DNA of 54,363 nucleotides from Patescibacteria group bacterium. GTDB lineage: Bacteria; Patescibacteriota; Minisyncoccia; Phycocordibacterales; JBBUBG01. Below the pieces are notes generated by a model. It ran no database searches. It was given only the letters and a program-made list of their open reading frames with translations, and was not told the DNA's origin. Of this stretch, positions 30,822-38,536 are shown piece after piece (position 1 is the stretch's first letter; every line of letters starts with the position of its first letter). Location of the stretch: the NCBI GenBank assembly GCA_040384765.1, contig JAZKIQ010000001.1, forward strand, positions 1-54,363, read 5' to 3'. The translations under genes and the position numbers were made by a program.

Positions 30822-31370
30822 TCAGCGTACGGGGTTCGGAGGGTACTCTCCTTTCAGGGCGAGTCCGTACTGTGCAAGAACAGTTCGTACCTCACCCAGC
30901 GAATGCTTTCCGAAACGGGGGATGGCCATGAGGTCCGCCGCCGTATGCCCCGAAACTCTTCCAAGTTCGATGAGGTTTTCTTGGGTGAGTAGCTGGAGCG
31001 TCCGAGTTGTAAAGCCGACCGTTCGGACATCTATGCTCTTCGCTTTTTTCCGAGCGGCTTCGATTACGACCTCCTGGGTCTGCAGTAGCTTTCTCCGTTG
31101 AAGTTCTTGCTCGAGCTCCTCACTTGAAACGCTCTGCTTCCAGTCGAGCTGGCTAAGCATCTCGTCAAGCTGTTGGTCGGAGAGCTTGTCGATTCGAGAA
31201 TACTTGCGACGCACTCTGCCGAGCGATCCGACCCAGAAAAGATCGAGCGCCTTAGCTAGTTCGCTAAGTCTGCTGCGCACCTCCTCTGTGGGTATCTCAA
31301 GCAGTTGGAAAGCGTTTCGCTCGGCCAGCTCGAAGAGCTTCTTCAGCTTCTCTTTCGTGACTTCTCGCAT
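30822..31370 (-). CDS. Stand-alone protein with RNA polymerase alpha C-terminal domain-like module
   Basis: C-terminal GFTTRTLQLL...DLMAIPRFGKHSLGEVRTVL..YGLAL; TTGACG-17-TACTGT promoter and GGAGGTGA SD. Confidence 0.7.
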   Translation of the reverse strand: MREVTKEKLKKLFELAERNAFQLLEIPTEEVRSRLSELAKALDLFWVGSLGRVRRKYSRIDKLSDQQLDEMLSQLDWKQSVSSEELEQELQRRKLLQTQEVVIEAARKKAKSIDVRTVGFTTRTLQLLTQENLIELGRVSGHTAADLMAIPRFGKHSLGEVRTVLAQYGLALKGEYPPNPVR

Positions 31371-31421: not shown

Positions 31422-33014
31422 TTAGAACTCAATAATGAAGCGCGAACCTTTCCCTACTCCATCTGATTCTGCTCGTATTACTCCCCCATTTGCCTCCATG
31501 ATCTGCCTGGCGAGATACATGCCGAGGCCTGTGCCACCAGCATTCACCTTCCCTGCCCCCTCTGCACGGCTAAACTTTTGAAAGAGCTTTGCGATGGTCT
31601 CTTTGCTCATGCCGATGCCTGTATCTGAGATAACAATGCTGATCTTTCCACCCACGTTGCGGTCAATTTTCACAAGAATGCTACCGCTCGGAGTGTATTT
31701 TGCGGAGTTGTCGAGTACGTTGAGGATCACCTGCTGGACCTTGTTCTTATCAAGGTTTGCGACATATTCTGCGTGCTCAGAGGCAACCTCAAAACGTACC
31801 TTGAGGCCCTTTTTCTCAATATTGGGCAGCAGCTGCTCTACCACGCTTTGGGTGAGGAGTTTGAGGTCTGTTGGTGCCATGTCGTACGTCATTCGGCCCT
31901 GCTCGATGCGCGAAAGGTTGAGGAAGTTGTCGATAACGCGCACGAGGCTTTCGCTTGATTCAAAAATAGTATGAATCGCCCCACCCACTTTCTTTGTTGT
32001 TTTTCCAAACGAGCCCTCGAGAAGCATCGATGAGTATCCCTTGATGGCTGTTAGTGGAGACCGGAGCTGGTGCGAAGCAATAGAGACAAACTCTGACTTT
32101 TGCTGGTCTAGCTCTGTGAGTTTCTCGTTTGCAGACTCTAGATCCTTTGCCAAACGCTCAACTTTTTCTCTAATTTCAACCTCACGAATTACGCTTCGAA
32201 CTAAAAGAAAACCAAAAAATACCGTAAGTACCAATAAACTCCCGTTAGCAATTTGATCTTCTGTCGTTTGAGATATGAGTAGTCGCACTGTAATGAAAAG
32301 CCAGAGCGATGCTGTAAGTAACTGCGCGGCTATTACCTTAAGGTTAAATAGTCGGTATTTAACAATTGCAAAGGCGATGGAGCCAACCATGAATACAGTG
32401 AAAACTGGCCCGAGACGAACGAAGTTATAGTTGTTGACAGCTAGAGGCAAAAATAAGTTAAAAAATGAGCCGCACAGTGTTGCCAAGATCGTACCTGCAA
32501 AAATAAAGCCAATCTGTCTTTTCTGTATATCCTCACTCTTTTTTTGTTTATTACGCAAAATCCTGAATGACCAAGCCATTATGAGAATAAAAAAAGCAAA
32601 GATGACAAGTACCCCATTGCCAGTGTTAATTTTCCATGGATTTAGCTCAATGTTTTGGATGGCAAGATTGGGTACAAACATAAGTGCAATTACTAATATA
32701 GTAATTGCGTTTAAAATTCGCTTTTGGTTTTGTGTAAAACCTGATATGTCGGAAAGAAAGAGATCTGAAAATCTCAAAAATGTATATCCGATTAGTATTG
32801 CAGATAGGTACCCAAGTATTGCAATAAGTAGTCCGTAGGAAGTGTCTTTTATGCTTGTTACTACAAGGTTTGTATAAATCCAAAGAGAAACGGAAAGGGC
32901 CAGACCAAGAAAATATTGGTTAGTCTTGAGCAAGCTGTTGCTTAAGTATACAAAAAGCCCCAAAGCCACATTAAGCAGGATTGAAATGAGAAGTATGAAT
33001 GAAGTGAGATCCAT
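31422..33014 (-). CDS. Membrane sensor histidine kinase, about 9 TM helices (HisKA_7TM/LuxN-like input), no receiver domain
   Basis: H-box ASHQLRSPL, N-box DNSAKYT, G1 DTGIGM, F-box, G2 GTGLG; ATG 33014 lies 2 nt after the luxI-like stop. Confidence 0.9.
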   Translation of the reverse strand: MDLTSFILLISILLNVALGLFVYLSNSLLKTNQYFLGLALSVSLWIYTNLVVTSIKDTSYGLLIAILGYLSAILIGYTFLRFSDLFLSDISGFTQNQKRILNAITILVIALMFVPNLAIQNIELNPWKINTGNGVLVIFAFFILIMAWSFRILRNKQKKSEDIQKRQIGFIFAGTILATLCGSFFNLFLPLAVNNYNFVRLGPVFTVFMVGSIAFAIVKYRLFNLKVIAAQLLTASLWLFITVRLLISQTTEDQIANGSLLVLTVFFGFLLVRSVIREVEIREKVERLAKDLESANEKLTELDQQKSEFVSIASHQLRSPLTAIKGYSSMLLEGSFGKTTKKVGGAIHTIFESSESLVRVIDNFLNLSRIEQGRMTYDMAPTDLKLLTQSVVEQLLPNIEKKGLKVRFEVASEHAEYVANLDKNKVQQVILNVLDNSAKYTPSGSILVKIDRNVGGKISIVISDTGIGMSKETIAKLFQKFSRAEGAGKVNAGGTGLGMYLARQIMEANGGVIRAESDGVGKGSRFIIEF

Positions 33015-33016
33015 GG

Positions 33017-33670
33017 TTACTTTTTTAGGAGCCAACGAAAAGCGATGTACTTACGCGGGTCCCAAGAATTCAGACTGCGCTCTAACTCTCTGAGATCAAT
33101 AAAGGCTCCATGGTATTTTTCTCCACGATGATCCTTGTGCAACTCTCCGGTAATTTCAACTACAAGTCCGAATCTTTTCTTCAGTGAAGTTACAAATCTT
33201 TCAGTTGATGCAAAGTACCAGTATCTTTTTTTATTCGCTATAGACCACTGATAAACAGACTTATATAGCAATCGAGCTACTAGGTTTCCCAGAGATGTTT
33301 TTTGAATGCTGGGATCTACAACTAAACGGGACAGCTCAATTGTATCGTTCTCTGTTCTTATGGAATGTTTTTCATGTACAAGATGGAGAAAATCCTTGTG
33401 CATCATAAAATGCTCCGGTTTATCTATTATCCGGACCATCCCAAGGAGAGTTTCGTTTCGAAACACACCAAAAACTATCGAGTGTTCATCGTATGTATCT
33501 TTCTCGTGCTGCGCGTCTTCCTGCCCCACCCACTTAAGCCTTTTAGTGAAGACCTCTTGCCTTAACTTGTAAGCCTGATCCAACAGAGCCGGCTCGTTAA
33601 AGTTTCTGGCCACTAGGTCTTGCTCACGTATAAATATCTCGGATTTATTTTCCTGAGAATTTACAATCAT
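33017..33670 (-). CDS. LuxI-family acyl-homoserine-lactone synthase-like GNAT acyltransferase
   Basis: LRQEVFTKRLKW (R,F,W), EKDTYD (E,D,D), GMVRII (R), IELSRL (E,S,R) match the conserved LuxI residue set. Confidence 0.75.
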   Translation of the reverse strand: MIVNSQENKSEIFIREQDLVARNFNEPALLDQAYKLRQEVFTKRLKWVGQEDAQHEKDTYDEHSIVFGVFRNETLLGMVRIIDKPEHFMMHKDFLHLVHEKHSIRTENDTIELSRLVVDPSIQKTSLGNLVARLLYKSVYQWSIANKKRYWYFASTERFVTSLKKRFGLVVEITGELHKDHRGEKYHGAFIDLRELERSLNSWDPRKYIAFRWLLKK

Positions 33671-33771
33671 TTAACAAGGATAGCATAAAATTCTAGCTCC
33701 TATTAAAAAGTTGGGATAACTACCGCTTGTTCTTTGTTGGCAGATGAGTCCTGCTTCGCTATGATCTTGGA

Positions 33772-34206
33772 ATGATTAAAATACTCGATAGCATGAGTCC
33801 AAACATGAAGTTGGTGCTTAGTATCCTGCAGGATGAGATTGACGGAAACACAAAGGCTGCCCTTGGAAAGATGCACCCAGGCTATTCAATGACCTGGATG
33901 TTCAAGGCCAAAAGTGGAGAGTTCTTTCCTTCTTCGCGCCCTGATTTTACCGCAGAGCTTGCCGAGGCGTATGCCATTACGGGCCGTGAATACGATATTA
34001 AACATATTACTGAAGCCGCGGATACGATATTTGTGGAGTTAATCGAAAGCTACCCAGACCCTGCTTCAGGTGAGGTCTTTCATACTCCTCTTGTTCTTGT
34101 GCTTGAGATTGAAGATGGAAAGATCAAAACAGGGAGACACTACTGTGATCCCGATATTTCCTACGCACATCTTTCGGCAGAGCAGATTAAGAAAGCTTTT
34201 AAATAA
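33772..34206 (+). CDS. SnoaL/NTF2-like fold protein
   Basis: 'MHPGYSMTW', 'TIFVE', 'VLEIEDGKIKTGRHYCD' NTF2 pattern. Confidence 0.8.
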   Translation: MIKILDSMSPNMKLVLSILQDEIDGNTKAALGKMHPGYSMTWMFKAKSGEFFPSSRPDFTAELAEAYAITGREYDIKHITEAADTIFVELIESYPDPASGEVFHTPLVLVLEIEDGKIKTGRHYCDPDISYAHLSAEQIKKAFK

Positions 34207-34438: not shown

Positions 34439-35113
34439 CTAGGCGACCTTGGAGGCGGCGGGTGTTGCCGTCAGAGAGCCGTAGCCCTTTTCGGCGTACC
34501 AGACCTCGGTGGAGAACATGCTCGAGGCGAGGAAGAGCTGGTGGAAGTTCGCCCACGAGCTGTAGAGCTGTGCGAACTCGACCTTCACGTTACCCGGCAG
34601 GTTCTGCTCCATCACGGCGGTGAGCAAGGTGAGGTGCTCCCGCGAGCAGAACTGCTTGAACTTCGTAGCGAGCAGGTCCGTCTTCTCGCCGAGATCGATC
34701 AGGCGGCTCTTGATGACCTCGAGGAGGTCGTAGAAGCTACCGCCCTTCATGATCCCAGAGACGGCTTCCCAGGAGGCTTCCGACACGATGCCGTTCTCCG
34801 AGAGCCGCTTACCGAGCGCCGACATGTTGATCTGCTTCTTCGCAGGCAGGTCGGTGTAGTTCTCCTGCTCCATCTGAGCCCGCAGGAGCTCGCACACCGA
34901 GATGGCGAGCAGGATCTGCGTCTTCGAGGACGCGAGGTGCTCGCACACCTTGGTGGGCCTTCTGAACTGTCCCCCATCGAGCTCTGCGAGGATGAGATCC
35001 TCGAAGGCGATGTTGGACTGCTCGAGCGACGCATACGCGCTGCTCAGGCCGCGAGAGATCATGGTTGAGTTCCTGAGATACCGACCGCACGGGGCGTGAT
35101 TTATGCCGCCCAT
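34439..35113 (-). CDS. Hypothetical all-alpha protein (224 aa)
   Basis: AGGAGG SD before MGGINHAPC; TTGACG-17-TATGGT promoter; GC-rich codons. Confidence 0.7.
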   Translation of the reverse strand: MGGINHAPCGRYLRNSTMISRGLSSAYASLEQSNIAFEDLILAELDGGQFRRPTKVCEHLASSKTQILLAISVCELLRAQMEQENYTDLPAKKQINMSALGKRLSENGIVSEASWEAVSGIMKGGSFYDLLEVIKSRLIDLGEKTDLLATKFKQFCSREHLTLLTAVMEQNLPGNVKVEFAQLYSSWANFHQLFLASSMFSTEVWYAEKGYGSLTATPAASKVA

Positions 35114-35215
35114 AAGAGCTCCTCCTGAATTCCCAGAACTGTTTTCGTAGCTTTTCAAACCATACTCCCTCAATAAGTTATCGTCAAACCCTAGCTGCTT
35201 TGGTTAAAAAAATAA

Positions 35216-37831: not shown

Positions 37832-37896
37832 AGAGCTCAGAGTTCAGAGTTTAGTATTCAGCTAGACTGATCTCTGAACTCTGCAAACTAAGCTCT
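37832..37896. repeat. Inverted heptamer element, AGAGTTC family
   Basis: 4+4 heptamers around AGCTAGACT. Confidence 0.85.
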
Positions 37897-38536
37897 AGTT
37901 TAATGCATAGACCCTATCCATAATCTTCTGCGAAAGATGAATGGCCGGGTCGATGGCTTCTGCGGAAGGGGTGGTGTCGCGCTCTAGGTCATCGATCGAG
38001 AATGGCTCTCCGAAAACGACGCGCAGGTTTCGCTCGGTAACCCCTTCTATCTTTGTTGGAACGATCACTGCATTCCCAAGCCGAGCAAGGTGCACGATCC
38101 CCGGCCGAGCATGTTTCTTTGTGCCGTCCGCATTCCACCCACCCTCAGGAAAAAAACAGACCGCACGGCCATGCTTAAGAAACCATATGTGATGTCGCAA
38201 GGCCAGAGAATAGTTGCTCTGTTTCCGGTATACAGGATACGCGCCCCAGGCTCGAAACAGTGCTCCACCGTAGAGATGCTTCCCTACAGGGAACATTGAG
38301 TATTCACCTTTTGGCCGCGAGCCATAGTAGAGCGGAGTAAAGCGCCCTAAAGGGGTGAGTGCGGCGGTTACCACAATAGGATCAAGGGGGCTTGCATGGT
38401 TTGCTGCAAAAATAACCCCTTTCCCTGAAGGGATGTTCGCAAGCTTTTCGCCGCCCTCAACACGCATCCCATATCTGAATCTAAGAAGGGCTCTTGTCGG
38501 GAGCCAAGCGAGAGACTGAAGGATGCGGGGCAGCAT
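37895..38536 (-). CDS. Lysophospholipid acyltransferase (PlsC-like)
   Basis: NHASPLD and FFPEG motifs. Confidence 0.88.
   Translation of the reverse strand: MLPRILQSLAWLPTRALLRFRYGMRVEGGEKLANIPSGKGVIFAANHASPLDPIVVTAALTPLGRFTPLYYGSRPKGEYSMFPVGKHLYGGALFRAWGAYPVYRKQSNYSLALRHHIWFLKHGRAVCFFPEGGWNADGTKKHARPGIVHLARLGNAVIVPTKIEGVTERNLRVVFGEPFSIDDLERDTTPSAEAIDPAIHLSQKIMDRVYALN

Follow-up and report, generated by a model that had tools for sequence, protein, structure and literature searches.

The stretch of DNA analysed here, referred to as the window (54,363 nucleotides, C1:1-54363 of a Patescibacteria genome of 822,710 bp in 12 contigs, 99.83% complete), carries on its minus strand a gene for a LuxI-family enzyme, followed directly by a gene for a membrane-bound sensor histidine kinase. 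The two genes, referred to together as the module, and the two parts of the kinase were delimited as follows:

33017..33670, minus strand: putative LuxI-family acyl-signal synthase, 217 amino acids (aa) (Pfam, alignment of residues with LasI, AlphaFold/Foldseek, tblastn).
31422..33014, minus strand: sensor histidine kinase, 530 aa from the ATG at 33014 (open reading frame, junction, Pfam, kinase boxes, alignment of 19 homologues).
32136..33014, minus strand: membrane sensor region of the kinase, residues 1-293, consisting of HisKA_7TM and two extra helices (Pfam, hydropathy, AlphaFold).
31422..32135, minus strand: cytoplasmic part of the kinase, consisting of a signalling helix, the dimerisation and histidine phosphotransfer domain (HisKA) and the catalytic domain (HATPase_c) (Pfam domains, motif positions).

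The synthase gene ends with TAA (33019-33017), which is followed by CC and then by the kinase ATG at 33014; the gap of 2 nt given in a preliminary description of the window was thus read correctly. A longer kinase frame (31422-33035, 537 aa) would result if TTG 33035 were the start codon. ATG 33014 was preferred because the 19 aligned homologous kinases begin at the same methionine. The genome had been called similar to those of the Candidate Phyla Radiation (CPR), and this label is sound because the genome is small (0.82 Mb), the genomes of its relatives are small as well (0.5-1.1 Mb) and the named records with homologous loci belong to Candidatus Vogelbacteria and Patescibacteria; in keeping with the label, no ketoacyl synthase was found.

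The synthase was matched by the Pfam model Autoind_synth (PF00765) at 54.3 bits (cut-off 24, residues 27-173) and also by Acetyltransf_5 (33.7 bits). The TraI equivalog models NF052393 and NF010408 gave 53.2 and 52.8 bits, far under their cut-offs of 250 and 292. When the protein was aligned by phmmer with sequences from the PDB (LasI match at E 3e-05), R37, F41, W47, E56, D58, D61, R80, E112, S114 and R115 fell opposite their counterparts in LasI (1ro5). All ten residues that characterise LuxI, EsaI and LasI in the N-terminal half (R,F,W; E/D,D,D; R; E,S,R) are therefore present in the 217-aa frame, as had been claimed. A search of 1.84 billion representative sequences returned 336 relatives (E <= 0.001), of which 133 reached E <= 1e-10 and only 3 reached E <= 1e-30, and the best full-length matches were used for a family alignment of 72 sequences. 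In this alignment R37, L45, W47, D58, R80 and R115 are invariant, and Y60, D61 and E112 are conserved in at least 90% of the sequences; the invariance of residues of the catalytic set over 72 sequences argues for purifying selection. Nearly all members (71 of 72) match Autoind_synth.

The profile built from this family retrieved seven solved acyl-homoserine-lactone (AHL) synthases at E values from 4.5e-22 to 2.1e-14 (LasI 4.5e-22, EsaI 4.7e-19, BjaI 9.2e-17, TofI 1.6e-16, RpaI 2.9e-15, 6wns 2.1e-14). The AlphaFold model of the synthase (predicted local distance difference test score, pLDDT, 93.0; predicted template modelling score, pTM, 0.88) was compared with the PDB by Foldseek, and ranks 1-11 were all occupied by AHL synthases (BjaI, RpaI, MesI, TofI, LasI, EsaI; E 1.2e-11 to 2.3e-08), LasI giving template modelling (TM) scores of 0.71/0.78. 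A tblastn search against plasmids returned 262 records; among the matches listed, most are annotated as AHL synthase or TraI, for most of these the identity is about 24-30%, and the best E value was 3e-9. The synthase is a divergent yet genuine member of the LuxI family, and the comparison by hidden Markov model (HMM) and by structure places it with LuxI-type enzymes rather than with FeeM or generic GCN5-related N-acetyltransferases (GNATs). Cues to the type of acyl donor disagree: the profile scores favour LasI and EsaI, whereas Foldseek ranks BjaI first (acyl carrier protein type versus coenzyme A type).

The kinase was matched by HisKA_7TM (PF16927) at 40.5 bits over the whole protein and at 42.9 bits with the N-terminal part alone (cut-off 28.6). 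The match covers residues 14-232 of the frame starting at TTG; HisKA and HATPase_c come after it. All kinase boxes were located in the 530-aa protein (H at residue 314, N at 434, G1 at 464, F at 478 and G2 at 494), in agreement with the intact boxes reported earlier. Neither a receiver domain (Response_reg) nor a GAF domain was detected by Pfam in the 537-aa frame, in which HATPase_c ends at residue 536. Nine hydrophobic segments were found by hydropathy and nine helices in the AlphaFold model (built on 19 homologues, mean pLDDT 87.6), as expected from the earlier count of about nine transmembrane helices; in the model, helices 4 and 5 are separated by a short beta hairpin (residues 119-131).

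The kinase had also been described as similar to LuxN. The nine helices bear this out, but the NCBIfam model LuxN_Vibrio (NF041945) gave only 4.1 bits (E 9.9, cut-off 1550), and homology of the sensor to LuxN was rejected on this score. The sensor belongs to HisKA_7TM, and the protein ends without a receiver domain. A fold search of the PDB with the sensor model gave no match at E <= 0.001. The sole weak named NCBIfam match of the kinase is to a Leptospira membrane-protein family (24 bits versus a cut-off of 200). Eukaryotic receptors with seven helices came up as weak matches of the sensor model (E 3e-3 and weaker, TM about 0.37-0.53), which are read as the generic likeness of one helix bundle to another. 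With LuxN the sensor has only the number of helices in common.

Conservation of the pairing was examined across the phylum. Homologues of the synthase were found with the family profile in 21 of 401 sampled genomes, the window's genome included, and two of 61 near relatives exceeded the cut-off with the Pfam Autoind_synth model. Twenty loci were compared, 19 of them from the 401-genome sample and one (G024) from the near relatives; these do not include the weakest match (G438) or a second fragment from G351. At 16 of these 20 loci the synthase gene is followed directly on the same strand by a kinase gene whose membrane region is homologous to the window's sensor (phmmer with the N-terminal membrane region, E 4.7e-58 to 2.1e-06). 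Two named records, L057 (Candidatus Vogelbacteria) and L058 (Patescibacteria group bacterium), contain the pair as well, so that the synteny survey suggested by the preliminary description found the arrangement repeated across Patescibacteria. The two genes often overlap or lie within a few bases of each other, across genera. The carriers belong to different genera, and their synthases share about 17-42% identity with that of the window. L049 and L056 stop at contig edges, where the pairing is not judgeable, and the kinase of L041 is cut by a contig end. Among roughly 650 long open reading frames of the window's genome only a single HisKA_7TM kinase exceeds the Pfam cut-off, and chance adjacency is therefore untenable.

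The partner kinases of L037, L038, L048 and L054 match HisKA_7TM above the cut-off. Most partner kinases are longer than that of the window and carry a GAF domain between sensor and HisKA; the short form is found in the window and in L037, L057 and L058. Small receiver genes are clustered at eight of the 20 loci, and two of these frames were confirmed as Response_reg by Pfam. Six loci (L041, L043, L047, L048, L050 and L051) have a second synthase paralogue in tandem, and the second copies form a clade of their own. Genes of the ThiF family (E1-like adenylating enzymes) lie beside or between the pair at L040:5131-5982, L042:6584-7378 and L046:6623-7567, those of L042 and L046 standing between synthase and kinase; they hint at a variant chemistry in these lineages.

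LuxI synthases normally pair with cytoplasmic LuxR receptors, and the kinases LuxN and AinR pair with the synthases LuxM and AinS. The LuxR ligand domain (Autoind_bind, PF03472) was found neither in the whole 822,710-bp genome nor in any of the 21 carrier genomes (this genome and 20 others). The earlier statement that the window holds no LuxR and no response regulator was upheld by this result and by the positions of the genome's five receiver matches, all of which are on contigs C4, C5 and C6. The only named relatives from outside the CPR among the genome contigs searched were three Nitrospira luxI loci (34% identity). At L059, the one Nitrospira locus scanned, a LuxR gene with Autoind_bind and GerE flanks the synthase. 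Nitrospira LuxI homologues, which need not include L059, are described in PMC8553950 as making C8- and C12-homoserine lactones. In a quick maximum-likelihood tree (73 rows, many long CPR branches, support by the Shimodaira-Hasegawa-like approximate likelihood-ratio test, SH-aLRT, only), four proteobacterial LuxI proteins were set apart from the rest (SH-aLRT 97), the window was placed with L057 and L058 in a clade of 13 rows (99), and an adjoining clade of 18 rows (99) contained the Nitrospira genes.

The locus is best explained as a two-gene module in which the LuxI-family enzyme makes an acyl signal that is sensed by its own membrane kinase; a rough probability of 0.55 was assigned to this explanation. 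The enzyme would form a signal molecule that is small, N-acylated and soluble in membranes, and this is most likely a compound of the AHL type derived from S-adenosylmethionine (SAM) and an acyl thioester. The kinase, whose translation follows directly on that of the synthase, would detect this signal within its nine-helix membrane domain, change its autophosphorylation and hand the phosphate to a stand-alone receiver protein whose gene lies at another site of the genome. With a membrane kinase in place of a cytoplasmic LuxR, the circuit would follow the logic of LuxM/LuxN or CqsA/CqsS with unrelated parts. The non-canonical pairing of synthase and receptor proposed in the preliminary description was retained insofar as a LuxI-type synthase recurs with a kinase and LuxR was found in 0 of 21 carriers; the sensor is not related to LuxN by sequence, however, and the pairing is not new. 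The checks that could be run gave none of the three outcomes named there as refuting it. Several observations count against this explanation. No receiver gene adjoins the window's copy of the module, and the others, which concern the enzyme, the pairing and the substrates, are given in what follows together with the alternatives to which they lend weight.

As to the enzyme, it might instead belong to the FeeM/NasY or PEP-CTERM type and synthesise an N-acyl amino acid or N-acyl amine, which the kinase may or may not sense. FeeM (PF21926) gave 25.9 bits on the synthase and the PEP-CTERM/exosortase-associated acyltransferase model TIGR03694 gave 47.6 bits, and 58 of the 72 family members match FeeM as well. 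Moreover, the feature neighbours of the synthase in the ESM Atlas are mostly clusters labelled FeeM, its best structural neighbour there is a mixed Autoind_synth/FeeM cluster and two further structural neighbours are PEP-CTERM-type acyltransferases. Both scores nevertheless lie under the curated cut-offs (27 and 111.95, respectively). The family profile that finds the seven AHL synthases did not find FeeM (2g0b) among the PDB sequences even at E <= 10, and in the Foldseek comparison FeeM appeared at rank 15 (TM 0.61/0.71). The N-terminal residues that are typical of SAM-using LuxI enzymes are invariant or nearly so, and no decarboxylase gene adjoins the pair in the window. An N-acyl synthase of this kind was accordingly regarded as an unlikely identity for the enzyme, though one with matches in its favour.

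As to the pairing, the two genes might be co-expressed without being ligand and receptor: the kinase would respond to some cue from the membrane or the host, and the product of the synthase would act on the host or on neighbours (presence signalling, manipulation). This alternative draws on the HisKA_7TM kinases without a synthase that also occur in this genome and on two of the 20 loci, L052 and L055, where the synthase stands without a kinase. It further draws on the literature, in which HisKA_7TM is seldom named and no stimulus for such sensors is on record, and in which orphan synthases acting on other species are discussed (Bernard et al., PMC7567580). The same-strand adjacency, on the other hand, persists across genera although the synthases have diverged to the low identities given above, as would be expected if the genes are functionally coupled; mere co-expression was hence considered rather doubtful.

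As to the substrates, genes for their supply were sought in the whole genome, with control genomes that gave matches in every one of these searches. No match was obtained for an acyl carrier protein (ACP; PP-binding), a bacterial or archaeal SAM synthetase (MetK), a ketoacyl synthase (FabF/B-type), an AMP-binding (acyl-CoA) ligase, a nucleosidase for methylthioadenosine (MTA) or S-adenosylhomocysteine (SAH), DegV or CoaE (dephospho-CoA kinase), so that the canonical supply of substrates is missing. The gene search proposed earlier thus left luxR, ACP, ketoacyl synthase and metK unmatched genome-wide, and the five receiver matches were outside the window. Among the 21 carriers, MetK was found in eight and not in 13, a carrier protein in five and not in 16, and a CoaE match in two, one of them over the cut-off. 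Judged by gene content, most genomes that keep the module appear unable to make the canonical substrates themselves.

RsmH is present (314 bits), so that the cell uses SAM and presumably imports it. A PlsC-type acyltransferase (PF01553) is encoded in the window at 37895-38536 on the minus strand, 4.2 kb from the pair, and such a gene directly adjoins the pair in L038:5239-5889, L047:2251-2916 and L058:5282-5977. Its presence implies that the cell must contain an activated acyl donor of some kind; with ACP, CoaE and acyl-CoA ligase unmatched, this donor is as unexplained as that of the synthase. The substrate gap also keeps the non-AHL chemistry discussed above alive, since the failure to find MetK and MTA nucleosidase in the genome speaks for an N-acyl synthase.

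The gap fits dependence on a host without proving it. CPR bacteria are mostly uncultured and attached to hosts, and how they sense their partners is little understood. It is conceivable, though not likely, that the synthase uses host-derived metabolites or a non-canonical acyl donor and that the kinase and a stand-alone receiver, such as the one in the type IV pilus operon described below, report contact with the host and not cell density. That scavenged substrates would make the signal a report of host contact is speculation, consistent with the missing genes.

The composition of the module has to be considered in the same connection. The synthase and the sensor half of the kinase are poor in G+C (GC 0.408 and, at third codon positions, GC3 0.353, versus genome means of 0.521 and 0.559); taken separately, GC3 is 0.417 in the synthase, 0.353 in the membrane half of the kinase and 0.565 in its catalytic half, the last value being typical of the genome. 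Recent horizontal acquisition was considered and is not proven: in 10 of 11 other loci, too, GC3 of the membrane half is below that of the catalytic half, and because of this recurrence the low G+C is a property of the module and no proof of recent transfer. The composition also bears on the idea that the module was acquired and is now decaying or inert, without function in a cell unable to supply the substrates. That idea could appeal to the substrate-pathway genes that were not found and to the G+C content of the synthase, which is the fifth lowest among 654 long open reading frames. It is opposed by the intact state of both frames, by the retention of all catalytic motifs, by the recurrence of the low G+C of synthase and sensor part in other carriers, and by the fact that carriers without MetK or ACP are the majority and yet keep the module. 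Decay was considered highly improbable.

For the output of the proposed acyl-signal circuit, the receivers of the genome were compared. There are four HisKA matches besides the five receiver matches, and the clear receivers are all stand-alone domains. Stand-alone receivers lie at C5:168802-169203, C6:4195-4644, C5:118430-118810 and C4:59887-60258. A profile made from module-associated receivers of other loci scored best on C5:168802-169203 (131 bits) and nearly as high on C4:59887-60258 (119.5 bits), a receiver that adjoins two other kinases. The C5 receiver sits within a type IV pilus operon (C5:165997-171068), between PilB and PilT-PilC-pilin, which makes control of the type IV pilus a possible output, the receiver itself being assigned by inference from the profile. 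This receiver has another competing partner in a second orphan kinase (C1:118765-120408). The possibility that the module is physically linked to type IV pilus genes was also considered and was set aside, as such linkage was seen in one locus only (L044).

The leaderless promoter that had been proposed for the two genes found no support. Upstream of 33670, a consensus scan of the minus strand detected no site of the sigma-70 type, and three such sites were found in the region versus 5.3 expected. Of the sequencing runs listed as containing this stretch, none is an RNA run and one, possibly the source, is a DNA run. The preliminary description thus held for the synthase, the kinase, their junction and the absence of LuxR, whereas the leaderless promoter was not supported by the promoter scan and the relatedness to LuxN was not borne out by the HMM scan. 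The only strong terminator-like hairpin on the minus strand (30818-30789, 13-bp stem) follows a gene for a protein of 182 aa.

This gene (30822-31370, minus strand) lies directly after the kinase, and the C-terminal 60 residues of its product match the C-terminal domain (CTD) of the RNA polymerase alpha subunit (28.5 bits). It was considered as a part of the module and rejected: no counterpart was found in the fetched loci, and relatives match through RpoA only. A second short alpha-CTD-like gene seems to lie at C2:22165-22350. Near the start of the synthase, AGGAG stands 10 nt before an out-of-frame ATG at 33686, which opens a mini reading frame of 13 codons overlapping the synthase start (33645-33701, minus strand); this may well be due to chance. 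Upstream of the module, a divergent frame of 144 aa (33772-34206, plus strand; likewise poor in G+C, 0.444) is SnoaL/NTF2-like at 23.5 bits (cut-off 27) and is not found beside the module elsewhere. It is followed by a frame of 244 aa (34439-35173, minus strand) with no match in Pfam or NCBIfam and a GC3 of 0.84 (99th percentile of the genome).

Pairs of this kind are already in print. Bernard et al. (2020, mSystems, PMC7567580) report 36 CPR homologues of LuxI found by HMM, 18 of which adjoin a sensory kinase, describe their key residues as conserved and propose the pairs as complete quorum-sensing systems. The main text of PMC7567580 presents no experiment on the LuxI-kinase pair and does not contain the terms 'histidine kinase', 'LuxN', 'acyl carrier' or 'precursor'. 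No further work on LuxI-kinase pairs in CPR was found in the literature searched. The likeness to the pairs of Bernard et al. lies in the same kind of organism and in a LuxI homologue directly adjoining a membrane sensory kinase (here with a junction of 2 nt), and the present locus is a further, uncharacterised example of a candidate kind that has been published. Added here are the identity of the sensor (HisKA_7TM and two helices), the receiver genes, how often the pairing occurs, the lack of LuxR in the carriers, the sister group of LuxR-paired Nitrospira genes and the problem of substrate supply. As the pair is in print as a candidate, the value of the analysis lies in this added anatomy and in the substrate puzzle, and not in the discovery of the pair. 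If the proposed explanation is true, there would be a third design for acyl-signal circuits, with a LuxI-family enzyme coupled to a membrane kinase and not to LuxR, and the product of the enzyme would be the first ligand for the widespread HisKA_7TM sensor; with most carriers lacking recognisable routes to SAM, ACP and CoA, the chemistry becomes a directly testable question.

In LuxM/LuxN and AinS/AinR of Vibrio, the sensor of the AHL is a membrane-bound hybrid kinase that has nine helices and a C-terminal receiver. The module shares with these systems, and with CqsA/CqsS, a synthase gene beside that of a polytopic membrane kinase, the absence of LuxR and, as proposed, the sensing of a lipophilic product. 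It differs from LuxM/LuxN and AinS/AinR in that the synthase is of the LuxI and not of the LuxM/AinS family, the sensor is not LuxN and the kinase is not a hybrid. With FeeM and the PEP-CTERM-type synthases it has in common the GNAT-derived fold (2g0b, at the TM scores quoted above) and weak HMM matches; it is distinguished from them by scores under both curated cut-offs and by a family profile that leaves FeeM out. To the LuxI/LuxR systems (LasI, EsaI, TraI, BjaI; NspI/NspR1 of Nitrospira) it is akin in enzyme family, fold and key residues; unlike them, it occurs without LuxR in the 21 carriers, its synthase is only about 24-30% identical to TraI-type enzymes, and it reaches 53 of the 250 bits set by the TraI equivalog model.

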